Source of the DNA: Minisyncoccota bacterium
GTDB lineage: Bacteria > Patescibacteriota > Minisyncoccia > Phycocordibacterales > UBA9973
DNA: 46,265 nt
Assembly: GCA_035353995.1 (NCBI GenBank)
Contig: DAOQAL010000001.1
Coordinates: 374,104 to 420,368 of the forward strand
Direction of reading: 5' to 3'
Shown here: positions 8,426 through 27,418 of the stretch, piece after piece
Position numbering within the stretch: the stretch's first letter is position 1
Layout of the letters: every line of letters begins with the position of its first letter
The notes under the pieces: generated by a model
What the model saw: only the letters and a program-made list of their open reading frames with translations
Told to the model about the DNA's origin: nothing
The model's database searches: none
Program-made: the position numbers and the translations under genes

Positions 8426-8428
8426 AAA

Positions 8429-10476: not shown

Positions 10477-10497
10477 AAATTTAAATAAATAATTTTT

Positions 10498-10944: not shown

Positions 10945-10945
10945 T

Positions 10946-11845: not shown

Positions 11846-11848
11846 AAT

Positions 11849-12205: not shown

Positions 12206-13913
12206 TTTTTTTTCATCAACGAGAATAAAAATTTTTTCTTTTTGTATACTTGCTTTTGCCTTCATATTAATTGTAAGGCTTTTTTTTATACAAATAGTAA
12301 ATAGTGATTTATATAAAGAAAAAGCTGACAGGCAATATGCAACTCCTTCTTCTGATATTTTTGAAAGAGGATCGATTTTTTTTGAAACAAAAACTGGAGA
12401 ATTAGTTTCTGCTGCAATACAAACAACTGGTTTTAAAATTGCTATTAATCCAGCCAAAATTACAGATATTGATAATACTTTTAATAAGTTAAAAGGAATA
12501 ATAGACATTGATTATGAAAAATTTAAACTAAAAGCTGAAAAGAAGGATGATCCTTATGAAGAAATAGCAAATCAACTTTCGAAAGAAAAAGCAGATGAGG
12601 TTTCAGCATTAAATCTATCGGGAGTATCTATTTATAAAGAGAAATGGAGATTTTATCCAGGAGAAGATTTAGCTTCTCACGTTTTAGGTTTTGTGGGTTT
12701 CAAAGGTAATGAATTATCTGGGCGTTATGGTCTAGAAAAACAATATGATAATACTCTTTCACAAAATAAAGATAATCCATATGTAAATTTTTTTGCAGAA
12801 GTTTTCTCAAATATAAATGATAAATTTTTTAGCGAAGAAGAACAAAATGGAGACATAGTTATGACTATTGAGCCAAGTACTCAAGGTTTTTTAGAGAAGA
12901 AGTTGAATGAAGTAAAAAATAAATATAATGCAGACTCTGTTGGTGGAATAATTATGAATCCTCAAGATGGATCAATTTATGCAATGTCATCAAAGCCTGA
13001 TTTTAATCCAAATAATTTTTCTGAAAATACGAATAACTCTATTTTTACAAATCCATTAGTTGAAAATATTTTGGAATTTGGTTCTGTAGTAAAGCCACTT
13101 GTAATGGCTGCTGCATTGGATGCAGGAGTTGTAACAGCAGATACAAGGTACAATGATACGGGTTCAGTTGTTGTAGAAAAAAAAGAAATATTTAATTTTG
13201 ATAAAAAAGGACGTGGACCAAATACAAGTATGCAAGATGTTTTAAATCAATCATTAAATACTGGTATGGTTTTTGTGTATCAACATTTAGGAAAAGAAAA
13301 AATGCGAGACTACTTTTTTTCTTATGGAATAAAAGACAAAACAGGAATTGATTTACCAAATGAAACTGGAAGTTTGACTGGAAATTTAAATAGTCCTCGT
13401 AATATAGAGTATGCTAATGCTTCTTTCGGACAAGGTATTGCTCTTACTCCAGTTGAAATAACTCGCGCTCTAGCGTCACTTTCGAATGGTGGAAACTTAG
13501 TTGTTCCTCATGTTGTGAAATATATAAAGTATGATGATGGTACAAGAAAAGAAATGACATATCCTGTAACACGTACAAAAATTTCTGAAAAAACTTCTGA
13601 AGAAATTACAAGAATGTTAGTAACAGTCATGGATAAATCTCTAAAAGGTGGTCTTGCAAAGTTTGAACATTATAGCGTTGCAGTAAAAACAGGAACTGCG
13701 CAAGTTGCTAATCTTAATGGAGGAGGATATTATTTAGATAAGCATACTCATTCTTTTTTTGGATATTTTCCTGCTTATGATCCAAAATTTATAGTTTTTC
13801 TTTATGCTGTTAATCCAAAAGGGGTACAATATGCTTCAGGAACTTGGTCAGATCCATTTTTAGATATTACAAAATTTTTAATAAATTATTATCAAGTTCC
13901 ACCGGATAGATAA
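12195..13913 (+). CDS. ftsI: Class B penicillin-binding protein (FtsI/PBP3-like)
   Basis: N-terminal TM, EFGSVVKP (SxxK), SLNTG (SxN), KTGTAQ; dcw position. Confidence 0.88.
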   Translation: MSYSFFSSTRIKIFSFCILAFAFILIVRLFFIQIVNSDLYKEKADRQYATPSSDIFERGSIFFETKTGELVSAAIQTTGFKIAINPAKITDIDNTFNKLKGIIDIDYEKFKLKAEKKDDPYEEIANQLSKEKADEVSALNLSGVSIYKEKWRFYPGEDLASHVLGFVGFKGNELSGRYGLEKQYDNTLSQNKDNPYVNFFAEVFSNINDKFFSEEEQNGDIVMTIEPSTQGFLEKKLNEVKNKYNADSVGGIIMNPQDGSIYAMSSKPDFNPNNFSENTNNSIFTNPLVENILEFGSVVKPLVMAAALDAGVVTADTRYNDTGSVVVEKKEIFNFDKKGRGPNTSMQDVLNQSLNTGMVFVYQHLGKEKMRDYFFSYGIKDKTGIDLPNETGSLTGNLNSPRNIEYANASFGQGIALTPVEITRALASLSNGGNLVVPHVVKYIKYDDGTRKEMTYPVTRTKISEKTSEEITRMLVTVMDKSLKGGLAKFEHYSVAVKTGTAQVANLNGGGYYLDKHTHSFFGYFPAYDPKFIVFLYAVNPKGVQYASGTWSDPFLDITKFLINYYQVPPDR

Positions 13914-13938
13914 AAATTAATTATTCGAAAATAATATT

Positions 13939-15234
13939 ATGAAAGATATTTTTAAAAAAATTATTATTTATATACTGCAAGTTGAATCAAAACTTGTTCT
14001 TTTGAAATACAAACCAAAAGTTGTTTCTATCACTGGTTCTGTTGGAAAAACATCTACAAAAGATGCTGTCTATGCTGTTATATCTGGTGTCTCTTATGTA
14101 AGGAAAAGTGAAAAAAGTTTTAACAGTGAAATTGGTTTACCACTTACAATTTTAGGTTGTCCAAATGGATGGAATAATCCAGTAACTTGGTTAAAAAATA
14201 TTTTTAAAGGTTTAAAACTTCTAATTTTACATAATAATTATCCCGAATGGCTTGTATTGGAGGTTGGAATAGGTAAACCAGGAGATATGAAAAGAACAGC
14301 TTCATGGCTTCGAAGTGATGCTGTAATTATAACTACAATAGGTGAAACTCCAGTTCATATTGAATTCTTTAATTCTCGAAAACATTTAATAGAAGAAAAA
14401 GCAGGTTTAATAAAAACTTTGAGAAAGGATGGAATTTTAGTTTTGAATGCAGACGATGAGGCTGTTATTGATATGAAAAATAAAACGAAGAACAAAGTTA
14501 TTACTTATGGATTCAAACAAGAAGCTGATATTTGTGGTTCAGAAGAAAATATTTTTTATGGTGAAAATGGATATCCAAAAGGAATTGTTTATAGAATAGA
14601 TGAAGAAGGGAAGAGCTTGCCCGTAACAATTGAAGGTGTATTTGGTAAAAACCACATATACGCTTCACTTGGGGCATTAGCACTTTCTTCTGGTTTAAAA
14701 TTCAATATGCTCGATGCAATAAATAGATTAAAAACTTATGAAGTTCCACCTGGCAGGATGCGATTATTGTCTGGCATAAATGATTCTTTGATTATTGATG
14801 ATACATATAATTCTTCGCCTTTTGCTTGTGAATCTGGTTTACGAACAGTTGGTGAAGTAAAAAATATGAAAAGAAAAATTGCCGTTTTGGGTGATATGCT
14901 TGAATTAGGAAAACATACAAAAACTGCTCATGAAAATATTGGTAAAATAGCTAGTGAAAATGTAGATATTGTTGTTGTAGTTGGGCAAAGAGCTGATGGA
15001 ATTAAAAATGGTGCTATTGATGCTGGTATGAATAAAGATAATATTTTTGAATTTTTAAATTCAACAGATGCAGGAGAATTTTTGAAAACTTTTGTACGTA
15101 AAAATGATTTAATTTTTATTAAAGGGTCACAAGGTATGCGTATGGAACGCACAGTAGAAGCAATTCTTTTTGATAAAGAAAATAAATCTAAATTACTGGT
15201 TCGTCAGGACGCTGAATGGGTTGCGAAGAAATAA
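13939..15234 (+). CDS. murF: UDP-MurNAc-tripeptide--D-Ala-D-Ala ligase
   Basis: TGSVGKTSTK P-loop, DDTYNSSP, LGDMLELG, KGSQG. Confidence 0.9.
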   Translation: MKDIFKKIIIYILQVESKLVLLKYKPKVVSITGSVGKTSTKDAVYAVISGVSYVRKSEKSFNSEIGLPLTILGCPNGWNNPVTWLKNIFKGLKLLILHNNYPEWLVLEVGIGKPGDMKRTASWLRSDAVIITTIGETPVHIEFFNSRKHLIEEKAGLIKTLRKDGILVLNADDEAVIDMKNKTKNKVITYGFKQEADICGSEENIFYGENGYPKGIVYRIDEEGKSLPVTIEGVFGKNHIYASLGALALSSGLKFNMLDAINRLKTYEVPPGRMRLLSGINDSLIIDDTYNSSPFACESGLRTVGEVKNMKRKIAVLGDMLELGKHTKTAHENIGKIASENVDIVVVVGQRADGIKNGAIDAGMNKDNIFEFLNSTDAGEFLKTFVRKNDLIFIKGSQGMRMERTVEAILFDKENKSKLLVRQDAEWVAKK

Positions 15235-15257
15235 AATTAAGCTAAATTTGTTTTAAA

Positions 15258-15659
15258 TTAATTTACTATCTGTGTGCAATGAGAGCAACGTTTTGCCTCA
15301 ATGGGTATTTCACTAAGACATTCAGGGCATTTTTTTGTACTAGGATCTATTGGTTTTCCTTTTTTAGATTTTGCAACAAGAAGATTTATAGGTTTAACAA
15401 CAAAAAAGAAAACGGTCGCAGACACAAGTAGAAAAGATATTAAAGCATTTATAAGATCTCCATATAGAAAGACACTGCCATTAATTGTAAAATACAAATT
15501 AGAAAAATCTCGAACTTTTGCTATTGCTGCTATAAGTGGAGTTAAAAAATCTTTTACCAATGCAGAAACTATTGTTCCAAAAGCTCCACCGACAACAACA
15601 CCAACAGCTAGGTCGACTACATTTCCTCTAAGTAAAAATTGTTTAAATTCTTTTAACAT
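15258..15659 (-). CDS. mscL: Large-conductance mechanosensitive channel with C-terminal CxxC-CxxC zinc ribbon
   Basis: FKQFLLRGNVVDLAVGVVVGGAF signature; tail CPEC...CSHC. Confidence 0.93.
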   Translation of the reverse strand: MLKEFKQFLLRGNVVDLAVGVVVGGAFGTIVSALVKDFLTPLIAAIAKVRDFSNLYFTINGSVFLYGDLINALISFLLVSATVFFFVVKPINLLVAKSKKGKPIDPSTKKCPECLSEIPIEAKRCSHCTQIVN

Positions 15660-15732
15660 ATATTTTTATATTTTTAATATATAAACGTAAAACAATAAAA
15701 TTATAACATATTAAAAAAGGGAAGTGTCAAAT

Positions 15733-15768
15733 AAAAAAGGGTGATTACTTAATTCATCACCCCTTTTT
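15733..15768. terminator. Bidirectional-type hairpin terminator
   Basis: AAAAAAGGGTGAT-loop-ATCACCCCTTTTT. Confidence 0.7.
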
Positions 15769-16113
15769 CTCCCAATAAGGGAATTTTTTTTTGCGATTTT
15801 TCAATACTGTCTTTTATATAACAATACTTTTCTAACACAAGATAAACCAATAAAGCTATGTGTTTGCACAAATTAAAAACACATATAAATGAAATTTTCT
15901 CAATATTTTTCATCGCTTTTTACCGCCTACTTTACTCAGCGGATTTTTTTAAGTTCATTTATATATAATATATAAGATCAAATTTACACTAAAAATTATA
16001 CCAATTTAATATCAAAAGTCAATTCAAGTTATTTAACAATTTAATTTTAAAGTCTTGACAAAATATGTGTTTAATTGTAACTTAAATAAAACGTAATTTT
16101 TAAAAGAAAAAAT

Positions 16114-16497
16114 ATGGACAGAAATCTTCAAAAGAAAAATCTTTCAGAACTTTTAAAAAAGCATGAAGATGCAGCTTCGAATGGTAATAAAAACTTGTGT
16201 AAGGAAATTAAAAACATAATTGTAAAAAAATACGACCTTAAACCAAGTTACAAGTTGCAAATAGCTTTGCTAGAAGTTAAATCTATGAAAATTTCCCAAG
16301 AAGAAAAAGAAAATTTATTTTTTGTTAAACAAATTGTCCGCGATTTGTTAGAAAAAATAGATATAAAAAAGATAAATAATCTTTGGGAAATTGAAGCATG
16401 TTTTCAGAAAGTTATGAAATCTTATGATATTTCTAGTCAAGAGGTTTTTGACCTTAAAAAAATAAGGACAAAAAACAAAAGAAAAAGGGGATCATAA
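16114..16497 (+). CDS. Hypothetical protein
   Basis: 127-aa ORF with TTGACA upstream and a hairpin downstream. Confidence 0.6.
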   Translation: MDRNLQKKNLSELLKKHEDAASNGNKNLCKEIKNIIVKKYDLKPSYKLQIALLEVKSMKISQEEKENLFFVKQIVRDLLEKIDIKKINNLWEIEACFQKVMKSYDISSQEVFDLKKIRTKNKRKRGS

Positions 16498-16512
16498 GAT
16501 AATAAATTATTT

Positions 16513-16553
16513 AAAAAACGCTCTGTGTAATTGTACAATTACACAGAGTTTTT
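16513..16553. terminator. Hairpin terminator between convergent ORFs
   Basis: CTCTGTGTAATT-GTAC-AATTACACAGAG perfect 12-bp stem with A/T tails. Confidence 0.8.
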
Positions 16554-16623
16554 ATTTTATATAAAAGTTTCTATATGCATAAAAAATGGGCCCACCTAAA
16601 AAGAGGTAAGCCCAATGTGTCTT

Positions 16624-17016
16624 TCATTGCCAGTCAACAGAAGTTAAATTATTGACAACAAAGTTAATTTGAAACGGACTTGAATTTCTCATCAAAATTA
16701 TTTTTGATAAAGTTTTTCTGTCATAATTGTCATCAACTTTTTCAAATTCTTGTTTGTTGCAGAATCTAATACTGGCAGATTCTTTTTTTTCTTCTGTGAG
16801 GAACAAGTTTATACCGTGTAAAGTATCATTTACGGTCAATCTTTTCTTTTGTTGTTCTTTTTCTTCTCCTGTTAAAAGAATTTTTTTTATGATATTAAAT
16901 AGTTTTCTTTCCCTTTTTAGGGAGTAAACAATCGTTACTGAAATAATTTTTTTGTTTTCAATTATTTCATCTAAAGATAGCCTTTGACCGCTGGAATTCG
17001 TGTAGTACTTCTCCAT
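16624..17016 (-). CDS. Hypothetical protein
   Basis: 130-aa ORF; no recognisable motif. Confidence 0.55.
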   Translation of the reverse strand: MEKYYTNSSGQRLSLDEIIENKKIISVTIVYSLKRERKLFNIIKKILLTGEEKEQQKKRLTVNDTLHGINLFLTEEKKESASIRFCNKQEFEKVDDNYDRKTLSKIILMRNSSPFQINFVVNNLTSVDWQ

Positions 17017-17114
17017 ATTTTGATTGTTTTTTATTTTTACAATGAAACTTTATACTTTTTCTACAAAAAACATATCATAAATATACCCAAAAGTCAACCT
17101 ACAATTTGCATATA

Positions 17115-17171
17115 TACATAGGCAAGACCTCTGTAGTAAAGACCAAACTACAGAGGCAAGACCTCTGTAGT
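17115..17171 (+). repeat. Two palindromic AGG-CAAGA-CCT repeats upstream of purM
   Basis: TACATAGGCAAGACCTCTGTA (17115-17135) and ACTACAGAGGCAAGACCTCTGTAGT (17147-17171, perfect 10-bp arms). Confidence 0.92.
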
Positions 17172-17299
17172 TCCTCTGGGTTAAAGAGATCTGTAAGAAG
17201 AGGGGTTTATTTTATTGCTTTTTTGTTAGTTTTAAGTAATATGAGTTAAGAAATTGAACATTTAAATTAATTAACATAAATTTACAGGAGGAATTTAAA

Positions 17300-18409
17300 A
17301 TGAAACAAGAAATGACTTATGCAGGAACTGGTGTCAATTATGCAGACATGGATCCTTTTAAAATCGCTTGTCAAAAACGAGCCATGTTGACTTCCAATAA
17401 TGCTAAAAGATTTGGCATTAACTCTTTAGAGTGGACACGAGGTGAAAGTGCCTTCATCCTTGATTTTAAGCATGTGACTTTCCCTAAAATTTCTCATGTT
17501 GAGGAAGGTCTTGGCACAAAAAACCTTGTTGCCGATGCAATGATGAAAATTACCGGTAAATCATATTATGATCAAATTGCTCAAGATACAGTAGCAATGA
17601 TTGTAAACGATATGATTACTCTTGGTAGTTTTCCAATATCTCTAGCTATGCATTTGGCCGTTTGGCATTCTGACTGGTTCAAAAATCAACAAAGAGTAAA
17701 TGACCTTGTCAGTGGATGGGGTGATGCATGTGATCAAGCAGGATGTGTTTGGGCTGGAGGAGAAACTCCAACACTAAGAGATATTATCTATCCTGAAGCG
17801 TCATTACTTTCTGGTTCTGCGGTGGGTATTAATTTACCCATGGGGAATTTTAATCCGTCGAATATTAAAGAAGGTGATTCGATTATTATTTTTGAATCTT
17901 CTGGTATTCATGCGAATTGTTTAACTCTCTCAAGAGAACTTGCTGACAAGCTTCCAAATGGTTACGAAACGCTACTGTCTGATGGCCGTATGTATGGTGA
18001 AGCGTTGCTTGACCCCACTCACATTTATTGCAATTTTTTGGAGCTATGTGTTACAGGAGGAACTGATATTCACTATGCGGTAAATATAACTGGTCATGGA
18101 TGGAGAAAATTCATGAGAGCTCCTCAGCCATTTTCCTATGTTATTGAAAAGCTTCCAACTCAATTGCCTATTTTTGATTTTATTCAAGAACATGGGCCAG
18201 TCTCTGACAAAGAAGCTTACAGTAACTTGAACATGGGAGCAGGCTTTGCTATTTTTGTTCCTGGTTCAAGTGTGGATGACATTCTTCTTCAGTGTAACGA
18301 AAAATTTCGTGTTTTTGTTGCCGGCTACGTTGAAGAATCTTCCGTAAAAAGAGTAGTCATCAAACCAAAGGGTTTAGAGTATAAAGCTGAAACTCTGGCG
18401 GTAAGGTGA
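17300..18409 (+). CDS. purM: AIR synthase (phosphoribosylformylglycinamidine cyclo-ligase) family protein
   Basis: TYAGTGVN, MIVND, AGGETP, SSGIHAN, HYAVNITGHG, NLNMGAGF; AGGAGG Shine-Dalgarno upstream. Confidence 0.85.
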   Translation: MKQEMTYAGTGVNYADMDPFKIACQKRAMLTSNNAKRFGINSLEWTRGESAFILDFKHVTFPKISHVEEGLGTKNLVADAMMKITGKSYYDQIAQDTVAMIVNDMITLGSFPISLAMHLAVWHSDWFKNQQRVNDLVSGWGDACDQAGCVWAGGETPTLRDIIYPEASLLSGSAVGINLPMGNFNPSNIKEGDSIIIFESSGIHANCLTLSRELADKLPNGYETLLSDGRMYGEALLDPTHIYCNFLELCVTGGTDIHYAVNITGHGWRKFMRAPQPFSYVIEKLPTQLPIFDFIQEHGPVSDKEAYSNLNMGAGFAIFVPGSSVDDILLQCNEKFRVFVAGYVEESSVKRVVIKPKGLEYKAETLAVR

Positions 18410-18423
18410 GACACCTTGTTTGT

Positions 18424-18460
18424 GAAAGACCAAAACTGGTAAAACAGTTTTGGTCTTTTT
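18424..18460 (+). terminator. Intrinsic terminator after purM
   Basis: AAAGACCAAAACTG-loop-CAGTTTTGGTCTTTTT. Confidence 0.85.
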
Positions 18461-18476
18461 AATATATTTTTGGGTA

Positions 18477-19013
18477 CTACATAGGCAAGACCTCTGTAAA
18501 TACATTCTCTAATTTAGTACCATATCTTTCCCAATAAACCTTCAATCCTTCCAATAATGGATATGAATATTTTTCAGGGTTATTTTTTGTATCTTTTTTT
18601 AACCAATCTAGCTTTACCCATTTAACAAGTGATATCTCTTTTTCTTCTGGGGTAATTTTATTATCGCTAATTGCTAAATATAATGTTGCAAAAGCACTAT
18701 CTTGAGTATCTGAATGGTAAAAAGTAAATAATTCTTTTGGTTTAATATCTAACCCTACCTCTTCTTTTGTTTCTCTTTCAATACACATTGCAGTTGTTTC
18801 ATTATCAACTGTACCAGACACAGAAAAAGTATAAAGATTTGGATACCAACGCTTATTGGGTGAGCGTTTCATTATGGCTACTTCGTTCTTTGAATTAAAC
18901 AACATTAAATGGCAAGAACGATGAATGTGTTTTTCTCTATGAAAATCCTCACGAGGTCTTAACCCTATAACATTATTTTTTTCATCAACTTCTATAATAA
19001 GTTCTTTTTTCAT
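18477..19013 (-). CDS. NUDIX hydrolase (IDI type 1-like subfamily)
   Basis: VDEKNNVIG...HRSCHLMLFNS...KR...YP N-terminal pattern and RETKEEVGL Nudix box. Confidence 0.8.
   Translation of the reverse strand: MKKELIIEVDEKNNVIGLRPREDFHREKHIHRSCHLMLFNSKNEVAIMKRSPNKRWYPNLYTFSVSGTVDNETTAMCIERETKEEVGLDIKPKELFTFYHSDTQDSAFATLYLAISDNKITPEEKEISLVKWVKLDWLKKDTKNNPEKYSYPLLEGLKVYWERYGTKLENVFTEVLPM
18478..18498 (+). repeat. Palindromic repeat overlapping the NUDIX gene 3' end
   Basis: TACATAGGCAAGACCTCTGTA. Confidence 0.9.
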
Positions 19014-19014
19014 A

Positions 19015-19458
19015 TTATTTTATTTTTGATAAATTTCCGTTAATTATTTTAGGGAACATTCCATATAATTCCTCTTTATATTTTGAACTATCGTCTATTG
19101 GATTTAATACATAAATTGGTTTCTTTAGATAAAAAGCAATAGCCATCTCCATTAATACAGCACCTCCAATATATCCATCTTTACCATTTTTCTTATAATT
19201 TAAAACTAAAATGATATCTCCTTTTTCTACTTCCTTAAAATGCTTCTTTGTTAAATATGCCTTTCTCTTATAATCTTCAGGTCTTTCCATCCAAGTCTTA
19301 TATGTCTCAACTTTGAAATCACCAGTCTTTTTCATTTTATTTACTGTCAAAGGAACAATCACTTTAAAACCTAGATCTTTTAAATCATTATTTATTTTTA
19401 TTACATTTTCATAAAACGAAGCACTTGAACAAATAACTATATTTTTTTTCTTTTTCAT
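19015..19458 (-). CDS. Nucleoside 2-deoxyribosyltransferase-like protein
   Basis: GDIILVLN...GYIGGAVLMEMAIAFYLKKPIY resembles the NDT-fold G-x-x-x-E...KP segment. Confidence 0.6.
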   Translation of the reverse strand: MKKKKNIVICSSASFYENVIKINNDLKDLGFKVIVPLTVNKMKKTGDFKVETYKTWMERPEDYKRKAYLTKKHFKEVEKGDIILVLNYKKNGKDGYIGGAVLMEMAIAFYLKKPIYVLNPIDDSSKYKEELYGMFPKIINGNLSKIK

Positions 19459-19470
19459 ACTATTTATTAT

Positions 19471-19511
19471 TACAGAGGCAAGACCTCTGGGGTAAAAGAC
19501 CTCTGGGGTAA
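19471..19511 (+). repeat. Palindromic repeat with duplicated right arm
   Basis: TACAGAGGCAAGACCTCTGGGGTAAA followed by AGACCTCTGGGGTAAA. Confidence 0.9.
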
Positions 19512-19513
19512 AA

Positions 19514-20065
19514 TTAAATTATTTTTAAAAGAGCTGATAAAAGTTGAGGTAATTCGGTAAAACCTGCAGAACCATTCAAATGTTGCCCATTTGAGATAAG
19601 CATTAATTCTCCATTTAATTTCTTTGCAATTTCTTGTGCGTCAGATACAGGGACAAACGGATTATTATCACCATGAATAACGATGACTTGAGAAATTTTA
19701 TTTTTTATAAGAGACCAATTAAACTTTTCTTTTAAAAACTCATCGATCTTTTTATTATCATTTATATTGCATGGCCCTGATACAAGTATTATACCTTTTA
19801 TATTTTCGCAATTATTTTTTTCTATGTATCTTAAAATAGTTGTGCTACCTAGACTATGCCCAATAAGATAAATATCGTCATTAAGATTTATCTTTACGTG
19901 GCGATCAATTTCTTCAAGCCATTCTGATAGTATCGGTTCATCTGGTTTAGGCATAGACAAAGCGCAGGCATAAATATTATGTTTTGAAAGTTCTTCCATA
20001 AGCCAAGATCTCCAACCTCCATTTGGACTTCCTTCAAAACCATGTATTATAAATACTTTTTTCAT
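19514..20065 (-). CDS. YdeN/RBBP9-family alpha/beta hydrolase
   Basis: IIHGF, GHSLG nucleophile elbow, HGDNNPFVP, GQHLN. Confidence 0.88.
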   Translation of the reverse strand: MKKVFIIHGFEGSPNGGWRSWLMEELSKHNIYACALSMPKPDEPILSEWLEEIDRHVKINLNDDIYLIGHSLGSTTILRYIEKNNCENIKGIILVSGPCNINDNKKIDEFLKEKFNWSLIKNKISQVIVIHGDNNPFVPVSDAQEIAKKLNGELMLISNGQHLNGSAGFTELPQLLSALLKII

Positions 20066-20122
20066 ATTTTAATTATATAATAAAAAACCTATTTAAAATA
20101 GTTCTATATATTAATATTTAAC

Positions 20123-20173
20123 TACAGAGGCAAGACCTCTGTCGTGAGAGGCAAGACTATGTAGACCTATGTA
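20123..20173 (+). repeat. Palindromic repeat plus degenerate partial copies
   Basis: TACAGAGGCAAGACCTCTGT, then GAGAGGCAAGACTATGTAGACCTATGTA. Confidence 0.9.
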
Positions 20174-20280
20174 AGATATGTTACAATTCAAAAGTAGAAA
20201 TATGCAGAATATAATATGTTTTTGATTTATACTTTTAAGTATTTAATAAATTAAAAGTTTAATTTTTAAAAAATAAATAT

Positions 20281-20679
20281 ATGAGCAATTCAACTATTTG
20301 GTATTCACAATTAATTAAACCAACTTGGGCACCACCACCTTGGTTGTTTGGACCCGTTTGGATAATACTTTACATAATAATTTTAATATCTTTTGGTGCA
20401 GTTTTTTTAAAATTTTTTGAAAGAAAAATACCTCGTAAAATAGTTTTGCCATTCGTTTTTAATCTGATATTCAATTTAATTTTTAGTCCAATTCAATTTG
20501 TCTTACAAAATAATATTTTGGGAGCAATAGATATAATCTTAGTTTTTATCACTTTAATTTGGGCAATGATTGCAATTTATCCAAGAATTAAATGGGTTAC
20601 TTATGTAAATATTCCTTATTTAATTTGGGTTTCTTTTGCTATGGTTTTGCAAATTATAATAACTTTTTTAAACATATAA
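20281..20679 (+). CDS. TspO/MBR family membrane protein, N-terminally short
   Basis: WYSQLIKPTWAPPPWLFGPVW and PYLIWVSFA signatures. Confidence 0.9.
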   Translation: MSNSTIWYSQLIKPTWAPPPWLFGPVWIILYIIILISFGAVFLKFFERKIPRKIVLPFVFNLIFNLIFSPIQFVLQNNILGAIDIILVFITLIWAMIAIYPRIKWVTYVNIPYLIWVSFAMVLQIIITFLNI

Positions 20680-20690
20680 TTTTATGAAAC

Positions 20691-20724
20691 TACATAGGCA
20701 AGACCTATGTATAAGACCTCTGTA
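20691..20724 (+). repeat. Palindromic repeat with duplicated right arm
   Basis: TACATAGGCAAGACCTATGTA (perfect palindrome variant) followed by AGACCTCTGTA. Confidence 0.9.
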
Positions 20725-20736
20725 ACTTTTTTAAAA

Positions 20737-21426
20737 TTACCATTTTTTTGATTGTTTTTTTATTTCAGATGGTAGATAACTTTCATTTGCAGTACTTTTT
20801 TGCTGTGTCCTAACTACAAATATACGTCTGTTGTCGTTATCAAAATATATATCTGTAAAATTTAAACGTTCTTTGTTTATTATTTCGCTACTTATTTTTG
20901 GTCCAGTTAATACAACCGGCTCAAAACCAAGCTCTTTAGAACAAATCTCACCTAGAATTGTTATAGATTTTTTATATAAATCATCACCATCATTTCCACC
21001 GAATATCACACAATCAATGGTTTTTGGTTCACATCTTTCTTTTATGTCCTTAATACTTTCAGATATTTTTTTAAGAAAATTTTCTCTAATAACATCGGTA
21101 TTATTTGTATGATATTCAAGAAATTTACTAGGATTTCGATGAATCATAATTGAAATATTTTTGTTAGTGTTTTTCTCAATACCTGATATTATTGTTCCCG
21201 TACAATATAAAAACGATTCCTCAGACCATTTGTTATGATCATTACACTCAGATATTTTTGAAACTCCATCAGCGTTCTTCTTATAATTTTCAATCATTTC
21301 TTTAGTTTCTGCATCTAGTTCATCTTTATTGCACAAACAAGAAGTAATAGGTTTTACTCCATCCCTAAGATATTCATATTTTATAGGATTTATTTTCTCA
21401 GTTTTATTTAAACTATATTTTTCCAT
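20737..21426 (-). CDS. Hypothetical protein, possible CheD-like Cys-His deamidase fold
   Basis: FLYCTGTIISG...ISIMIH...CVIFGG pattern; TGATATAAT 6 nt before the ATG. Confidence 0.45.
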   Translation of the reverse strand: MEKYSLNKTEKINPIKYEYLRDGVKPITSCLCNKDELDAETKEMIENYKKNADGVSKISECNDHNKWSEESFLYCTGTIISGIEKNTNKNISIMIHRNPSKFLEYHTNNTDVIRENFLKKISESIKDIKERCEPKTIDCVIFGGNDGDDLYKKSITILGEICSKELGFEPVVLTGPKISSEIINKERLNFTDIYFDNDNRRIFVVRTQQKSTANESYLPSEIKKQSKKW

Positions 21427-21462
21427 TATTTAATTATATCAAATATAATAAAATTTCTTTAG

Positions 21463-21492
21463 ATAGGCAAGACCTCTGTAGAGACCTATGTA
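21463..21492 (+). repeat. Palindromic repeat with duplicated right arm
   Basis: ATAGGCAAGACCTCTGTAG followed by AGACCTATGTA. Confidence 0.88.
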
Positions 21493-21632
21493 AACAGAAA
21501 AATATGGAATGCTATGCATGCAAAGATTATGTGAGCCACAATAATTTGCTCGCCGTCGCTCGCAAATTTTCCAGCCCCGGACTCAGCTGTTTTTCTTACT
21601 AGAAAAACATGCTTCCGTCTTCACGGCGAAAG

Positions 21633-21662
21633 AAAAAAACTCCAAGCAGTTGGAGTTTTTTT
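21633..21662 (-). terminator. Terminator downstream of tRNA-Glu(CTC)
   Basis: AAAAAAACTCCAA-loop-TTGGAGTTTTTTT. Confidence 0.8.
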
Positions 21663-21669
21663 ATCGCCG

Positions 21670-21741
21670 TGACCCCACAGAGAATCGGACTCTGATTTTA
21701 TCCTTGAGAAGGATACGTCCTAGCCGTTAGACGATAGGGCC
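21670..21741 (-). tRNA. tRNA-Glu(CTC)
   Basis: Minus strand GGCCCTATCGTCTAACGGCTAGGACGTATCCTTCTCAAGGATAAAATCAGAGTCCGATTCTCTGTGGGGTCA; anticodon CTC; T loop TCCGATT. Confidence 0.92.
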
Positions 21742-21846
21742 ATAAAAAACTTTTAGCATCTATCGTCCTGAAAAATGAATGGGCGATAGGGCCATGAAAA
21801 ACTTTTGGCATCTATCGTCCTTAAAAATGAATGGGCGATAGGGCCA
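21732..21846 (-). repeat. Two tandem 52-bp tRNA-Glu leader units
   Basis: CGATAGGGCCA at 21732, 21784 and 21836; the units differ from the 3208 copy by 1-2 substitutions each. Confidence 0.92.
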
Positions 21847-21958
21847 ATATTTATTTTCCGATATAAAAAATATACCATTTTTTGTTATAAAATCAAAAAA
21901 AGCATGTGTGATAATAATCATCAACACATGCTTCATACTCCCAATTACCAACTACCAA

Positions 21959-22552
21959 CTAATGCCTTTCGTAAACTCCTACGGCTTTTGTTTTTTTCAG
22001 ATCTTCTTGGACTGAAATTGTTTTTCCTTCTACGCTTGTAGTAGCGTGCGGAACACTCCATAGACGTTCTTTTGGAATCAACTTGCCAGTAACTCGGCAT
22101 ATTCCGTAGGTTTTATTACTGATTCGGACTAACGCATTTTCCAGATGTTTTATAAACTTTTCCTGTCTGGCCGCGAATTTGCTGTTTTCTTCCTTGGAAA
22201 AGACCTGATAGCCTTCTTCCAAGACCTTGAAGGTGGGAGAAGTGTCATATGTCCCATTATTACCATCCGGCTCTGTTGATGCTTCCTTGAAAAGACTTAA
22301 ATCATTTCGTGCCTTATTAAGTTTAGCATTGATGATTACACGAAACTCTTCAAGCTCCTCGTCAGTGTATCTAGTCTTCTCTTGGGCAACAGGTGTGACA
22401 CCGATTAATGATTTTACTCCAACAATATGGTGGCCATTGGTTGGAGTTTTGGAAATAATTCTTTTATTAGCTTTGACTTCGACTCCTCCTTGAGGAACCT
22501 TTCCAGTAGCTAAGGCATGAGCCTTTCCGTTTACGGTAATTTTTTTTGCCAT
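21959..22552 (-). CDS. TraR/DksA family transcription factor
   Basis: RYTDEELEEF...DTSPTFKVLEEG...LENALVRISNKTYGICRVTGKLIPKERL..VPHAT. Confidence 0.88.
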   Translation of the reverse strand: MAKKITVNGKAHALATGKVPQGGVEVKANKRIISKTPTNGHHIVGVKSLIGVTPVAQEKTRYTDEELEEFRVIINAKLNKARNDLSLFKEASTEPDGNNGTYDTSPTFKVLEEGYQVFSKEENSKFAARQEKFIKHLENALVRISNKTYGICRVTGKLIPKERLWSVPHATTSVEGKTISVQEDLKKTKAVGVYERH

Positions 22553-22654
22553 TTTTTGTCTTTTTTTTAGAAAGTTTTTAACACTCAGAAAGTTTACGCT
22601 TGTCCTGTCAAGGATCTACGTTTAATTTATTTATACACCTTAATTTAATTAATG

Positions 22655-23704
22655 TCAATCTTCGTTTTTTGGTTTTTCTAGTTCGAGAGAAGACAGTTCT
22701 GGACTTGTGCCAGAAATACGAAGTACATCTTTATCTATTTTATGTAATTCTTTATTTGACAAGTTGTAATGGTTTACAACTGTGCTTAGAGAATTTCCAA
22801 GTTTTGTATGATATTCATCATATGATTTTAAATGTTTACCTAAGTCTCCAACTTTTTTAATTATTTCTTTTGCTGATTCTTCTATTTGCATGGCTTTTAA
22901 TCCTTGCAAGACAGTTTGCAAATATGCAAGAAATGAAGTAGGGGAAACTATTATAACTTTATGTTTACCAGCTGCTCTTTGAATTAAATTTTCTGAATTT
23001 TCATCTGAAGAACCAATTTTATTTACTAATAAATCATAATATATAGCTTCGTGTGGAATGAACATAAATGCAAAATCAGTTGTGCCTTCTTTTGGTTGTA
23101 TATATTTTGAAGTTTCTATAATTCTATTTTTTAAATCATTTATAAAAATTGTTTCCAATTTTTTCTTTTCAGATGGATTGCGTTCTTCTGAAACTCTATT
23201 ATAGTTTTCAAGAGAGAATTTAGAGTCTATTGGAATAATTTTATCTTTAACTTTTACTATTGCATCAACTATATTTCCATCAGGAAAAGCATATTGCATC
23301 TGGTAAGAGCCTGGAGGAAGAACATTTTTTAAAACTGTTTCTAGATAATATTCTCCTAAAATTCCACGCTGTTTTGGATTTTTTAAAATATCTTGCAAAT
23401 TTTGTAATTGATCTGCGAAAGAGATAACTTGCTTATTTGTTTCGTCAAGTCTTGTTAATTTCTCTGTAACATCCTGTATTATTTTATTTGACTCTGTAGA
23501 ATGAAAACGTAAACTTTCTGTCATTTGCTTATGTGACTCGCCAATTTTACTATCTACTGTTCTGGAAAGCTCATTAATTTGTTGCAAAATAAGCTGTAAA
23601 CCAGTATCACTTGTTGCGTCTTTGTTTTTCTTTTTTCCGAATAAAAAATAAACTACAACTCCTCCAATTAAAACTCCTATTATGATCCATAAAATAGTTT
23701 CCAT
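22655..23704 (-). CDS. rmuC: DNA recombination protein RmuC
   Basis: N-terminal TM, coiled coil, NPKQRGILGE, PIDSKF, DFAFMFIPHEAIY, VSPTS. Confidence 0.92.
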   Translation of the reverse strand: METILWIIIGVLIGGVVVYFLFGKKKNKDATSDTGLQLILQQINELSRTVDSKIGESHKQMTESLRFHSTESNKIIQDVTEKLTRLDETNKQVISFADQLQNLQDILKNPKQRGILGEYYLETVLKNVLPPGSYQMQYAFPDGNIVDAIVKVKDKIIPIDSKFSLENYNRVSEERNPSEKKKLETIFINDLKNRIIETSKYIQPKEGTTDFAFMFIPHEAIYYDLLVNKIGSSDENSENLIQRAAGKHKVIIVSPTSFLAYLQTVLQGLKAMQIEESAKEIIKKVGDLGKHLKSYDEYHTKLGNSLSTVVNHYNLSNKELHKIDKDVLRISGTSPELSSLELEKPKNED

Positions 23705-23838
23705 CTTTCTATTTTACCATATAAATATATTTTTTTAGTAGTATCGAAATTTGCAAAATTTGTCTATTGAAGTATTCTATAAAAGAAACAGTTTTTTTAT
23801 AAAAAGTAGGTCTAAATGGCCGAGTAAAAGTAAAAGTT

Positions 23839-23979
23839 ATGACAAAAGAACAACATGAACTTTTAAAGATTGGTGTAATACTATCTATGCTAATTGCATT
23901 AATGGTTATAATCGGCATTTTAAACTATGTATTTTCCTACAGAAGTAGAAAGTACCCCAAAGTCTCATCTAAAAAATGA
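23839..23979 (+). CDS. Small single-pass membrane protein (46 aa, below the ORF-track cutoff)
   Basis: MTKEQHELLKIGVILSMLIALMVIIGILNYVFSYRSRKYPKVSSKK; fills the rmuC-exonuclease gap. Confidence 0.55.
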   Translation: MTKEQHELLKIGVILSMLIALMVIIGILNYVFSYRSRKYPKVSSKK

Positions 23980-23988
23980 TGGGACTTT

Positions 23989-24705
23989 TTATTTTCCCAA
24001 ATGATGTTTCAAGGTATAAATCCAGTCTTCGTCAACCTGATCACTTTCAAGTTTTTGATTTAGTAACCATTCCAAATAACTTCTGTCTATGCGTGCAATT
24101 TCTTCTATTTCTTTTCCATTATGTTTTCCAAAATTAATATATTTTAAAAGGGAAGGGTGTAATGAAACTTCTATCATTTTTTCTACAACTTCTTCTTCAT
24201 TAAGATTATATTCTTCCATCATTTTTTTTCTGAGTCTTTCATATAATTTTTCCAAAACTAAAACATCTCCTAATGCATCATGAGCAGTAGCTTCAACATC
24301 AAGTTCAAGTAAATATCGCAAATATTGCAAATTATATCTATCAATTTTTCCTTCAGGATCTAAATATCGTGCAAGTCTTAATGTGCAAATAAAATTTTTA
24401 GGCTTTATTCCTTCTTTTTTAATAATCATTAAATCGAATTGCACATTGTGAGCAACTACTATTGAATTTTCATCCTCAAAAAGTTTTTTAATTTTTTCTT
24501 CGTCTCCGCTTTCTTTAAAAGAAAATTCTTTCTCAACCATTTTATTTGTTATATGATGCACTGCTGATGCTTCTGGTGGAATTTTTATAGGAGGTTTATA
24601 AAAACCAACAAAACTTTCATCGCCAGTTTTATAAGCAATCTGGCATAAGTAGTCTTTTTCTGTATTGCCAGTTGTTTCTGTGTCAAAAAATATAATTTTT
24701 TTCAT
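23989..24705 (-). CDS. DEDDh 3'-5' exonuclease (DnaQ/ExoX-like) with C-terminal FGKH domain
   Basis: FFDTETTG, VAHNVQFD, AHDALGD; C-terminal FGKHNGK...YLEWL. Confidence 0.88.
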   Translation of the reverse strand: MKKIIFFDTETTGNTEKDYLCQIAYKTGDESFVGFYKPPIKIPPEASAVHHITNKMVEKEFSFKESGDEEKIKKLFEDENSIVVAHNVQFDLMIIKKEGIKPKNFICTLRLARYLDPEGKIDRYNLQYLRYLLELDVEATAHDALGDVLVLEKLYERLRKKMMEEYNLNEEEVVEKMIEVSLHPSLLKYINFGKHNGKEIEEIARIDRSYLEWLLNQKLESDQVDEDWIYTLKHHLGK

Positions 24706-24725
24706 CTTTCTATTTTACCATATTT

Positions 24726-24734
24726 TGCTATAAT
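24726..24734 (+). promoter_or_regulatory. Extended -10 promoter (example of the leaderless-type promoters)
   Basis: TGCTATAAT 6 nt before ATG 24741. Confidence 0.7.
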
Positions 24735-24740
24735 AAAAGT

Positions 24741-25190
24741 ATGTTACATGAACAAATAAAAAATAAAATAAAAGAAGCAATGATGGCAAAAGATTCTATA
24801 AGCCTTGAGACATATCGCGGAATGGTTTCTGCTTTTACAAATGAGCTTGTTTCAAAGGGTAAAAAACCCAATGAAATGCTTTCTGACGAAGAAGCATTAG
24901 TCGTTATAACTAGACTTTCTAAACAAAGAAAAGATTCAATAGAGCAATTTAAAAAGGGGAATAGGGATGATTTAGTACAAAAAGAAGAGTCAGAACTTAA
25001 AATACTGGAAACATATTTGCCAAAAATGATGGAGAAAGGCGAAGTAGAAAAAATTGCAAAAGATAAAAAAGAAGAGCTTGGTATTTCTGATGCAAAAGAA
25101 AAAGGGAAATTGATGCAAGCTTTAATGAAGGAGCTAAAAGGTAAGGCTGATGGATCGACAGTTAAGGAAGCAGTGGATGCTTTGTTTTAA
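24741..25190 (+). CDS. GatB/YqeY domain protein
   Basis: KQRKDSIEQFKKGNRDDL..KE..E...LETYLPK, GKADG. Confidence 0.92.
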   Translation: MLHEQIKNKIKEAMMAKDSISLETYRGMVSAFTNELVSKGKKPNEMLSDEEALVVITRLSKQRKDSIEQFKKGNRDDLVQKEESELKILETYLPKMMEKGEVEKIAKDKKEELGISDAKEKGKLMQALMKELKGKADGSTVKEAVDALF

Positions 25191-25193
25191 TAT

Positions 25194-26114
25194 ATGAAAT
25201 TTTTCAATAGTCTTTTTAGAAAAAAAACAAAAAAGTTAGTAACTCATAGTGGTTCATTTCATTCTGATGATATTTTTGCTTGCGCCACTATTTGTATCGC
25301 TTTGGAGAAAGAAGGTAAGTCTTTTGAGATAATAAGAACAAGAGATCCGAAAATTATAAAAAGTGGTGACATAGTTTTTGATGTAGGTGGAATTTACAAT
25401 CCTGATATAAATCGTTTTGATCATCATCAAATAGGTGGAGCAAAAAAACGTGATAATGGCATAGAGTGTTCTTCTTTTGGTTTGGTATGGAAAAAATATG
25501 GAGAAAAAATTTGTGGTTCAAAAGAAGTTGCAGATTTTATCAATAAAAAATTAGTTATGCCTGTTGATGCTTTTGATAATGGTATGGATTTAGTGGAATC
25601 AAAACACGAAGTAAACTACTATTTAGTTCAGAATTTTTTTATGTCTTTCATACCAAGTTGGAAGTGTAGAAATGAAAAAACATTATTAGATGGATTTTTA
25701 AAAGCTGTAAAAGTTGCAAAAGAATTATTGTTGCGTGAAATTTCTTTCACGAAAGATTTAGTTGAGAGTAGGAAAGAAATTTTACGATGTTATGATGAAT
25801 CTAAAGATAAAAGATTTATTGTTTTAGATAAAAAATATCCATGGGAAGAAGAAATGAGTAAATTTGCTGAACCATTATTTGTTATTTTCCCAAGACATGG
25901 TGGAAATTGGGGCGCAGAAGGTGTTTTAATAAATATGTCTTCCTTTAAAAGAAGAAAATATTTTCCACAAGCTTGGGCTGGACTTAGTGATGGTGAATTG
26001 GCAAAAGTTTCTGGGGTTTCAGATTCAGTTTTCTGCCACCGTGGAATTTTTATGGTGGTAGCAAAGTCAAAAGAGGGTATAATTAAATTAGTAGAAAAAG
26101 CTTTAAATGAATAA
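25194..26114 (+). CDS. MYG1 family protein
   Basis: THSGSFHSDD, RTRD, DVGGIY, FDHHQ, FCHRGIF. Confidence 0.92.
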   Translation: MKFFNSLFRKKTKKLVTHSGSFHSDDIFACATICIALEKEGKSFEIIRTRDPKIIKSGDIVFDVGGIYNPDINRFDHHQIGGAKKRDNGIECSSFGLVWKKYGEKICGSKEVADFINKKLVMPVDAFDNGMDLVESKHEVNYYLVQNFFMSFIPSWKCRNEKTLLDGFLKAVKVAKELLLREISFTKDLVESRKEILRCYDESKDKRFIVLDKKYPWEEEMSKFAEPLFVIFPRHGGNWGAEGVLINMSSFKRRKYFPQAWAGLSDGELAKVSGVSDSVFCHRGIFMVVAKSKEGIIKLVEKALNE

Positions 26115-26119
26115 AAAAT

Positions 26120-27157
26120 ATGGCATTCATAGATGAAATAAAAATATACGCAGAAGCAGGTCATGGTGGAAATGGCGTTGTTCGTTGGCGTAAAGAAAAA
26201 TTTATACCAAAGGGTGGTCCTGCCGGTGGAGATGGTGGGCGTGGTGGTGATTTTTATGTGCAAGCTGTTCGAGACATTCATCTTCTTTCAAAATATAAAT
26301 CAAAAAAAAGTTTTATTGCTGGCCGAGGAGAAGATGGTGGTAAAAAAAGTTTACATGGTGCATCAGGACAAGATTTTATTTTAGAATTGCCTATAGGTTC
26401 TGTTATTACCAATATTGATACTGAAGAAAAATGGCAATTGACAGAAGAAGGACAAAAGATTTTATTGCTTCATGGAGGATATGGCGGTTTCGGAAATGAA
26501 CATTTTAAAAGTTCTATAAATACGACTCCATTTGAGTCGAGAGAGGGTAAGGATGGAGAAACTGGAAATTTCCAAATAGAGTTGGAGCTTTTTGCTGATA
26601 TAGGTTTTATTGGTTTGCCTAATGCTGGTAAATCTTCTTTATTAAACATGATTACAAATGCTGATGCTAAAGTAGCAGATTATGCTTTTACAACGCTTGA
26701 TCCAAATTTAGGGAATTTTTATGGTTATATTATTGCTGATATACCAGGGATAATAGAAGGAGCATCGGATGGAAAAGGTTTAGGTGTTAAATTTTTAAAA
26801 CATATAAAAAGAACAAAAATGCTTGCACATTTAGTTTCTTTTGAAAATGTTTTAGGCACTAATAGTTCATCAAAAATGATGAAAGTTTATAAAGAAATTC
26901 GCAAAGAACTAGAGACTTATGATAAAAAAAATAATTTAGGAGAAGAAGGACTTTCAAAAAAAGAAGAAATTATAATTCTAACCAAAACGGATGTAGTTAC
27001 GGACAAATTTTCAACCTCTCTTAAGGCAAATGATTTTATAGATAAAAAGAAAAAAGAATTTGAAAAATTAAATAAGAAAGTTTTTGTTTTATCTTTATAC
27101 GATGATAAATCGATAAAAACTTTTAGAGATAAGTTAATTAAAATTTTAAATAAATAA
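26120..27157 (+). CDS. obgE: GTPase ObgE/CgtA
   Basis: Gly-rich Obg fold, GLPNAGKSS, YAFTTL, DIPGIIEGA, TKTD. Confidence 0.96.
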   Translation: MAFIDEIKIYAEAGHGGNGVVRWRKEKFIPKGGPAGGDGGRGGDFYVQAVRDIHLLSKYKSKKSFIAGRGEDGGKKSLHGASGQDFILELPIGSVITNIDTEEKWQLTEEGQKILLLHGGYGGFGNEHFKSSINTTPFESREGKDGETGNFQIELELFADIGFIGLPNAGKSSLLNMITNADAKVADYAFTTLDPNLGNFYGYIIADIPGIIEGASDGKGLGVKFLKHIKRTKMLAHLVSFENVLGTNSSSKMMKVYKEIRKELETYDKKNNLGEEGLSKKEEIIILTKTDVVTDKFSTSLKANDFIDKKKKEFEKLNKKVFVLSLYDDKSIKTFRDKLIKILNK

Positions 27158-27158
27158 T

Positions 27159-27398: not shown

Positions 27399-27418
27399 AA
27401 AAATTGTATAATAAATTT

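Follow-up and report, generated by a model that had tools for sequence, protein, structure and literature searches.

The stretch of DNA analysed here (the window) is 46,265 nucleotides long, has a composition of approximately 30% G+C, and is part of contig DAOQAL010000001.1 of a Minisyncoccota bacterium. Its sequence recurs in the activated-sludge metagenome contig JGI 3300009692 Ga0116171_10000119 and on a 421-kb contig of NCBI assembly GCA_964524305.1, and its protein homologues carry the names Paceibacterota, Minisyncoccia, or Patescibacteria. Between 17.0 and 21.7 kb, it contains an island of accessory genes whose gaps hold copies of a short hairpin repeat. This repeat is probably a repetitive extragenic palindrome (REP) of a system that pairs REPs with a REP-associated tyrosine transposase (RAYT). 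The island lies in the interval between a murF-like ligase gene and rmuC (15235-22654), of which tRNA-Glu(CTC) (21669-21741, minus strand) is a conserved landmark.

The purM module (17213-18459, plus strand) is composed of a promoter and leader (approximately 17213-17299), purM (17300-18409), and an intrinsic terminator (18424-18459), and is bounded by the hairpins H2 and H3 described below. It is followed by a NUDIX gene (18477-19013), a gene of 147 amino acids (aa) (19015-19458), and a gene for a YdeN-type serine hydrolase (19514-20065), all on the minus strand, then by a TspO/MBR family gene (20281-20679, plus strand) and a 229-aa gene (20737-21426, minus strand). RmuC is encoded to the right. 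An earlier reading of the window, here called the sequence-only reading, had named purM, NUDIX, YdeN, and TspO genes, and Pfam supports all four (purM as AIRS/PurM and the YdeN gene as Ser_hydrolase). Its labels "NDT-like" for the 147-aa gene and "CheD-like" for the 229-aa gene did not hold, since the former has no significant family match and the latter has no match in Pfam or NCBIfam.

The window contains 10 exact matches of the repeat motif AGGCAAGACCT, with 0.40 expected and a largest count of three in shuffled sequence. The right-arm half alone, AGACCTMTG, has 14 matches against an expectation of 0.24. All copies are intergenic or touch only a stop codon, and the 11-nucleotide core is intact in all ten. 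No further diverged copy was found elsewhere in the window. The seven copies listed by the sequence-only reading are all present at the positions it gave, with the loop CAAGA on the plus strand; it missed three, with core matches at 3346 and 3385 (plus strand) and at 34269 (minus strand). Two extra hairpins are present in the left flank, at L143:3283 (plus strand) and at L143:2196 (minus strand, 10 kb left of the window), and none in the right flank. This gives 12 known copies in this genome, of which approximately 66 kb is readable (the window and 10 kb on each side).

The seven hairpins of the array (H1 to H7) are all on the plus strand. H1 (TACATAGGCAAGACCTCTGTA, 17115-17135) has a T·C mismatch in its stem and is followed by an AAGACC fragment (17139-17146). 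H2 (ACTACAGAGGCAAGACCTCTGTAGT, 17147-17169) has a perfect stem and forms the left border of the purM module. The first three bases of H3 (CTACATAGGCAAGACCTCTGTAA, 18477-18499) are the stop codon of the NUDIX gene on the minus strand. H4 (19470-19492, with the region extending to 19512) is composed of mismatched arms of two different subtypes, TTACAGAGG on the left and CCTCTGGGGTA on the right, and leads into a 16-nucleotide tandem duplication of AGACCTCTGGGGTAAA (19481-19496 and 19497-19512). H5 is a cluster (20121-20175) that contains a hairpin (20121-20143), a degenerate copy (GAGAGGCAAGAC-TATGT, 20146-20162), and a half copy (20163-20175). H6 (ACTACATAGGCAAGACCTATGTA, region 20689-20725, hairpin 20689-20711) is compensated by a T-A pair and carries the half copy AGACCTCTGTAA at 20714. 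H7 (region 21459-21494, hairpin 21459-21481) has a degenerate left arm, TTAGATAGG, and carries the half copy AGACCTATGTAAA at 21482. The spacer between H1 and H2 (AAAGACCAAAC, 17138-17148) nearly equals the left arm of the purM terminator (AAAGACCAAAAC, 18425-18436), by chance or as a trace of a past junction.

Outside the array, two plus-strand hairpins are situated between tRNA-Glu(TTC) and tRNA-Ser. The one matching at 3346 (CCCCCAGAGGCAAGACCTCTGTGGT, 3339-3363) is preceded by a partial left half, AGAGGCAA (3330-3337), and the one matching at 3385 (CCCCAGAGGCAAGACCTATGGGG, 3379-3412) includes a trailing half copy, TAGACCTTGTA (3402-3412). A listed 72-aa open reading frame (ORF) at 3229-3447 covers both hairpins and is almost certainly no gene. 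The copy matching at 34269 (34263-34285) is in the opposite orientation, 19 nucleotides past tRNA-Ile.

On a strict count, five of the six gaps in the island hold a copy, and the copy of the sixth gap is the one that overlaps the NUDIX stop codon. Only two of the 26 other window gaps of at least 25 bp hold one, both beside tRNA genes (Fisher p = 6e-4 against the island). The core intergenic gaps that had been named as free of the repeat contain no copy, and two accessory gaps just left of the array, 15660-16113 (454 bp) and 16498-16623, are also empty. The island genes lie on strands +, -, -, -, +, and -, and all array copies share one orientation. The sequence-only reading had given all copies the same orientation, which is correct within the array; because the copies at 34269 and L143:2196 are on the minus strand, the uniformity is a property of the array and not of the genome.

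The hairpin copies can fold as single-stranded DNA at -3 to -9 kcal/mol, and H1 and H2 together (17108-17178) fold at -13.9 kcal/mol with a z-score of -4.3. A perfect 7-bp stem beyond the closing GG/CC exists in one of the 12 copies in this genome, H2. At the fifth stem position, the alternatives G/T and C/A pair near-randomly, with 8 matched against 6.5 expected. The left arm of H7 pairs better with its trailing half copy than with its own adjacent right arm. The partial second right arms reported earlier are real (19497, 20163, 20714, and 21482, to which 3402-3412 and the degenerate 20146-20162 can be added), and the trailing half copies all begin at AGACC, within the loop. Simple decay does not explain these loop-anchored half copies or the 16-nucleotide tandem duplication. 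Copies in direct repeat share an identical core of at least 11 nucleotides, and H3 and H4 agree at 17 of the 19 nucleotides of the motif.

Copies in other genomes were located with an exact scan for the 19-mer ACAKAGGCAAGACCTMTGT in one genome per species (185,579 species). The scan gave 57 loci, of which approximately 40 are in Patescibacteria (candidate phyla radiation, CPR) and the remainder are about as many as chance, which uniform-composition arithmetic puts at an estimated 17 or so. The patescibacterial hosts include Saccharibacteria, Paceibacterota, and Kaiser-, Zambryski-, Nomura-, and Gracilibacteria. In several of these genomes the copies form back-to-back inverted doublets (loci L019, L025, L026, L031, L038, L049, and L054). 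The stems of intergenic copies extend with sequence that differs from genome to genome and is nonetheless complementary.

In a set of 27 copies across genomes, the 11-nucleotide apex A-GG-CAAGA-CC-T is invariant. Compensatory changes are found at nine of the 12 stem pairs, and 90% of the cells are paired, compared with 66% after shuffling and 22-51% with the partner slid. This set had been pre-selected for pairing near the apex, so the real weight of the covariation test is carried by the outer pairs. A search of Rfam, at gathering thresholds for the whole window and at E up to 10 for 17.0-21.7 kb, returned only tRNAs and noise. The claim that the repeat is a folded element at the level of DNA and not a gene-linked signal is supported.

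The palindrome ACATAGGCAAGACCTATGT also exists inside genes, where it encodes YIGKTYV in CPR valyl-tRNA synthetases and DIGKTYV in BioD (dethiobiotin synthetases). The loci with such coincidences are L009, L021, L023, L035, L037, and L045, and L002, L014, L018, and L051. These intragenic sites are false positives for any motif-based count of REPs. A 51-bp tandem coding repeat with the motif ACAGAGGCAAGACC in a Leptonemataceae contig (L057, 5226-6100) has no relation to these hairpins. Only about four hairpin-like GGCAAGACC copies exist in 889 kb of orthologous loci from relatives, which makes the multiplication specific to the lineage of the window. The 19-mer has no match in viral contigs, and the profile of the RAYT described next found no confirmed relative there; neither gives a sign of a phage vector. 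The intergenic position of all copies and the link between the hairpin and an HUH gene led to the rejection of a role as an uptake sequence.

When the ORFs next to the hairpins were clustered, one recurrent neighbour was found, a protein of approximately 216 aa. Its gene has a hairpin on both sides at L004, L038, and L053, a hairpin at its stop codon at L044, and an inverted pair upstream at L031. Five family members were reached independently of the hairpin, and four of these (L148, L149, L150, and L154) carry GGCAAGACC hairpins. In all four, one hairpin lies approximately 40 bp upstream in the TCTTG orientation and a second lies at the stop codon in the CAAGA orientation, while the stem sequence differs genome by genome. 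The fifth, L134, from a relative of the window organism, has a 232-aa variant between yqeY and an RNase T gene (6500-7560), flanked on both sides by a different hairpin, CCCTAAGTCSGACTTAGGG, as would be expected if RAYT and REP co-vary. The sequence-only reading had drawn the REP/RAYT analogy correctly, and the IS200-like HUH gene flanked by the repeat that it had proposed to look for exists in these other CPR genomes.

The protein belongs to the Y1 HUH transposases. Members score 31.8-41.7 bits against Pfam Y1_Tnp (PF01797; cutoff 23), and the sole NCBIfam match is NF047646, REP-associated tyrosine transposase, at 41-49 bits, which is below its equivalog cutoff of 80. The HUH motif, NHFH, and the catalytic-tyrosine motif, SYIHLNP, are invariant in 20 family sequences. 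An AlphaFold2 model has a pLDDT (predicted local distance difference test score) of 86.6, and its best Foldseek match in the PDB is 4er8_A, the E. coli TnpA_REP bound to a REP hairpin (E 3.4e-5, probability 1.00), followed by the TnpA proteins of IS608 and ISDra2 (2a6o, 2vjv, and 2xm3). A sequence search of the PDB with the RAYT profile gave no match. The profile search returned at least 7,996 relatives of similar length, all named ones being from CPR, and JGI (the Joint Genome Institute) names some members "REP element-mobilizing transposase RayT". At L148, L150, and L154, the gene (around 10001-10657) has the same neighbourhood, dnaE-x-RAYT-pth-lepB-hisS-def-fmt, where x is a small ORF; at L134 and L149 it is at other positions. 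The shared neighbourhood fits a vertically inherited gene that is housekeeping-like and domesticated rather than mobile.

The interval that holds the array was compared among 80 loci that encode RmuC at 68-85% identity, 29 of which reach both rmuC and the murF-like ligase gene. The two genes are neighbours in all 29. Between them are tRNA-Glu(CTC) and zero to seven small, mutually unrelated ORFs, and the interval is 382-4,689 bp long, compared with 7.4 kb in the window. None of the nine island genes of the window is present at this locus in the 29 relatives. Given this unrelated gene content, the interval is a hypervariable hotspot in the whole group, and the modules do sit, as had been proposed, in an accessory and hypervariable interval adjoining tRNA-Glu(CTC). 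The hotspots of the relatives contain unique terminator-like hairpins only and no repeat family.

Strain variation was followed in public sequencing runs. In runs X1 and X2, the window sequence is unchanged at 26-50x depth on a single contig each, and X3 has the same H3 junction. A second lineage, approximately 99% identical and called lineage V here, is represented by X4 (soil, 2025), X9 (activated sludge, 2024), and X13 (wastewater, 2021), which have the purM single-nucleotide changes 18325 C>T and 18362 A>G in common. In X4, purM is 85% covered, and nothing maps to 16500-17235 or 18524-22000. A 167-nucleotide X4 unitig (depth 4.2) tracks the window to 18496 in the right arm of H3 and continues as GGGTAGACCTATGCAAGCAAGCCTACAGAG. 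A 151-nucleotide X13 unitig (depth 2) contains ACAGAGGCAAGACCTCTGGGGTA, then GACCTATGCAAGCAAGC, then window positions 20122-20233 (H5 and the region upstream of TspO), and overlaps the X4 unitig by approximately 50 nucleotides. X9 contains pieces of MscL, purM, TspO, and the tRNA gene, and none of the NUDIX, 147-aa, or YdeN genes.

The order in lineage V is thus purM, hairpin, half copy, 9-nucleotide linker, H5, and TspO, without the 1.6 kb that carry the NUDIX, 147-aa, and YdeN genes. The break points are 18496|18497, inside H3, and 20121|20122, at the foot of H5. In this one case, hairpins mark both ends of a gene presence/absence difference between strains. Coverage of the right side of lineage V, from TspO to the tRNA gene, is too thin to be read. 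Across 8000-28000 in X4, the surrounding core genes are approximately 7% covered compared with approximately 85% for purM, at similar unitig depth, and that sample may therefore contain a near-identical purM in a second genome background as well. No circular or excised junction was found among the unitigs of the deep runs X1 and X2.

Proteobacterial REPs have a canonical unpaired GTAG 5' of the palindrome and are species- or genus-specific. To our knowledge, work on REP-RAYT pairs has been confined almost entirely to Proteobacteria, and what the pairs do is still a matter of debate. The REP/BIME (bacterial interspersed mosaic element)-TnpA_REP and REPIN (doublet of inverted REPs)-RAYT systems are well described (PMC8266576, PMC3333891, PMC3479197, PMC3116915, PMC3337134). 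A REPtron consists of a single tnpA_REP flanked by REP and inverted REP (iREP) (PMC8266576), and the genes at L148, L149, L150, and L154 have this layout. The CPR system resembles the REPtrons of E. coli, Stenotrophomonas, and Marinomonas (PMC8266576, PMC3333891; 4ER8) in its short extragenic palindromes of high local density, its single Y1 HUH gene flanked by inverted palindromes with a fold closest to 4ER8, the conserved chromosomal neighbourhood of that gene, and the co-variation of the REP with the RAYT variant at L134. It differs from them in that the conserved part is the apex (the loop and three closing pairs), common across CPR classes, and in the length of the RAYT, approximately 216 aa compared with approximately 150-165. 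A survey of Y1 HUH subclasses makes no mention of CPR (PMC6006769), and the CPR RAYT has LFE-KF where the subclasses of that survey have their "WQ" motif. A search of one literature library found no paper linking REP or RAYT with Patescibacteria or CPR.

With the REPIN-RAYT system of Pseudomonas (PMC3116915, PMC3337134; RAREFAN preprint 10.1101/2022.05.22.493013), the CPR system shares non-autonomous hairpin repeats, perhaps a single-copy RAYT, and, in other CPR genomes, the inverted doublets; the window copies are either single or arranged in direct pairs 34-39 bp apart (17115/17147 and 3346/3385). The IS200/IS605 insertion sequences (IS608 and ISDra2) share the Y1 HUH fold, and by analogy with them the hairpin would be recognised as single-stranded DNA; the array orientation would fit a strand-specific, replication-coupled action like theirs. 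Unlike these insertion sequences, the window has no transposase or TnpB between its hairpins, and its elements are 23-45 bp long and are not insertion sequence ends.

The explanation that we consider likely is that the repeat is the REP element of a REP-RAYT system widespread in Patescibacteria/CPR, that it has multiplied locally, and that its copies serve as crossover or break points. We infer that a RAYT acts on the hairpins of this genome. By analogy with TnpA_REP and IS608 TnpA, the approximately 216-aa Y1 HUH transposase would recognise the folded single-stranded REP. Because the apex is conserved while the stems drift, recognition would most likely be through the invariant A-GG-CAAGA-CC-T, and the distal stem would need only to pair. 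The element would have multiplied locally into the gaps of the 4.4-kb accessory block in the hypervariable interval around tRNA-Glu(CTC), and the uniform orientation of the array would fit strand-specific action on one replication template. Being uniformly oriented, the copies are direct repeats, and the DNA that separates two of them may be deleted or inserted. Direct repeats with an identical core may thus serve as crossover points at which modules are added or lost. The strand exchange itself could be the work of the RAYT, or it could arise through slippage of host replication or through recombination over short homologies. The REP cores may actively serve as sites at which gene modules are exchanged.

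Several observations weigh against this explanation. No RAYT was found within approximately 66 kb of this genome (the window, by tblastn, and 10 kb beyond each end), and a tblastn search of fetched loci aimed at the RAYT of this genome found none. With a perfect stem in only one of the 12 copies, many may be inactive relics. The CPR repeat does not have the conserved unpaired 5' GTAG of the REPtron; in many of its right arms, GTAG forms the 3' end, where it is paired with CTAC. The window copies are tandem and direct and are not the inverted REP/iREP doublets of BIMEs and REPINs. The hotspots of the relatives exchange genes without the repeat. The homologues of the 229-aa gene (57-62% identity, L151-L153, three genomes) have no such hairpins, nor do the purM homologues at L140-L142, and in both cases these relatives are too distant to decide. 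The indel is supported by three low-coverage runs with unitigs of low depth (2 and 4.2), and because every gap of the block contains a hairpin, any indel that respects gene boundaries would end near one. The cassette idea holds in part: the one strain-level indel has both of its ends in repeats.

The sequence-only reading raised the possibility of an integron-like capture or shuffling platform driven by a recombinase in trans, with the large serine recombinase at 1636-3183 as one candidate. In a fuller form of this idea, each module would be, or would once have been, a circular unit with one hairpin, and site-specific strand exchange at the apex would be performed by the RAYT or by the serine recombinase. 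Such a platform would account for several features of the array, including the one orientation common to all of its copies. The segment 18497-19491, which holds the NUDIX and 147-aa genes, lies between direct core repeats, and its outer half-arms, TTACAGAGG and CCTCTGTAA, would remake a perfect hairpin. For the left arm of H3, the right arm of H2 is a better pairing partner than the right arm of H3 itself. The arms of H4 and H7 are mismatched, and every half copy begins at AGACC, which would fit joining within the loop. The lineage V junction is within hairpins, and purM appears to have been relocated as a whole promoter-gene-terminator unit from the purL-purN-purM cluster of relatives. However, such cross-module arm complementarity is found in two of the five modules only, and, the arm subtypes being few, such a match would arise by chance with a probability of about 0.2. 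Known RAYTs cut next to the hairpin, not in the loop (PMC8266576).

In the array or next to it there is no recombinase. Nothing ties the serine recombinase, 14 kb away and beside a tRNA-linked element of its own, to the repeat; in 15.2-22.7 kb no recombinase was found, the nearest being this one and a tyrosine integrase past the right end of the window. The genes face both ways with their own promoters and terminators, the 229-aa gene has homologues elsewhere without hairpins, copies of the repeat also exist outside the array, and the hotspot turns over in the 29 relatives without a shared repeat. Circular junctions, which the sequence-only reading had proposed to look for in reads, were not seen in X1 or X2, and neither were excised ones. 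A platform of this kind is judged unlikely. A related idea, that the CPR REP-RAYT pair is a device for the exchange of gene modules, with genes of one REP each integrated and excised by HUH-catalysed exchange at the apex, is similarly doubtful. Such exchange would leave hairpins with hybrid arms and loop-anchored half copies. If true, genomes that rely on gene flux would possess a functional counterpart of the integron that is built on an HUH enzyme and operates at a tRNA-linked hotspot.

It is also conceivable, with a probability that we put quite low, that the REPs are passive passengers piled up where insertions are tolerated, in accessory gaps and beside tRNA genes, that they take no part in the gain or loss of genes, and that the coincidence with the indel follows from their density. 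Hypervariability of this hotspot is also seen in 29 relatives that lack the repeat, core operons offer little free intergenic space, many stems are degenerate, and a copy in every gap of the block makes nearby break points likely. Against this, the two empty accessory gaps left of the array exceed most of the occupied gaps, the lineage V break points are inside or at the foot of hairpins and not just in the same gap, and the core at which arms of different subtypes meet is perfect in all ten copies. A role at the level of RNA or regulation, as a terminator, an mRNA-stabilising hairpin, or the operator of a DNA-binding regulator, is highly improbable. An A-tract before and a T-tract after the hairpin at L006, L015, L032, L040, and L047 resemble a bidirectional terminator, and E. 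coli REPs affect mRNA stability (PMC8266576). The window copies, however, are without a T-tract, and a terminator scan picks up only H2, weakly and on the minus strand. purM has its own terminator upstream of H3, copies are also present in divergent promoter gaps, and they are oriented without regard to the direction of the genes. A dimeric operator would have no need of the invariant, asymmetric loop seen here; Rfam has no match, and RNA contigs end before the hairpin.

As for the identity of the repeat itself, it resembles an integron attC site in being a folded single-strand site at gene borders, and the array resembles an integron in the presence or absence of modules between strains and in that the half-sites of one module would form a perfect site. 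The repeat is otherwise a 23-nucleotide simple hairpin with a CAAGA loop and, as had been observed, without the GTTRRRY core. There is no IntI, attI, or cassette promoter Pc, and no R''/L''-L'/R' architecture, and the partner family is an HUH enzyme rather than a tyrosine recombinase. An attC or integron identity was rejected, since none of the defining features tested was present. In Neisseria, the dRS3/RS mosaic elements and the "minimal mobile elements" are cases in which short repeats bound variable small gene units between conserved genes. They involve another repeat family, and are proposed to act through transformation and homologous exchange and as targets of phage integrases; the likeness to the array is one of resemblance only.

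The island genes and the surroundings of the array provide further observations. Homologues of purM number in the thousands. Among relatives at 75-80% identity (L140-L142), the gene is part of a purL-purN-purM cluster; in the window it stands alone, outside such a cluster. A stretch of approximately 85 nucleotides before purM is conserved in relatives whose PurM is only 75-80% identical (L141, approximately 4955-5039; L140, approximately 7915-8000). It contains a -35/-10-like TTGCTT...TAATAT and a 5' leader, and is a candidate regulatory leader without an Rfam match. purM is transcribed in three activated-sludge metatranscriptomes (X5, X7, and X8), and the RNA runs cover only purM and a DksA-like gene. 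The 229-aa family recurs beside NUDIX, Ser_hydrolase, Peptidase_S51, and 147-aa genes in three unrelated genomes (L151-L153), which suggests a functional link, perhaps in nucleotide housekeeping, over random co-location.

The large serine recombinase (Resolvase, Recombinase, and Zn-ribbon domains) overlaps tRNA-Glu(TTC), on the opposite strand, with its 3' end, and is preceded by a small ORF with a resolvase domain (1071-1472). Left of the window, L143 1-9800 holds a string of small genes of no assigned function along with NADAR and His_Phos_1. The serine recombinase region is probably an element integrated at tRNA-Glu(TTC). A second island begins approximately 0.5 kb past the right end of the window (L145, 12360-21290) and contains no hairpin copies. 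It encodes the tyrosine integrase, a SAM synthetase, a PD-(D/E)XK nuclease, T5orf172, DUF3644, NOV_C, and two DNA methylases.

The findings point to a REP family whose 11-nucleotide apex is identical across CPR classes and whose partner is a syntenic RAYT family with at least 7,996 members. For annotation, this accounts for a conspicuous repeat that might otherwise be taken for part of an integron or for a regulatory site. REP copies that border a gene indel between strains bear on the question of what role REPs play for their hosts. If confirmed, this would be a deeply conserved REP-RAYT pair in tiny genomes, where idle repeats should come at a cost.

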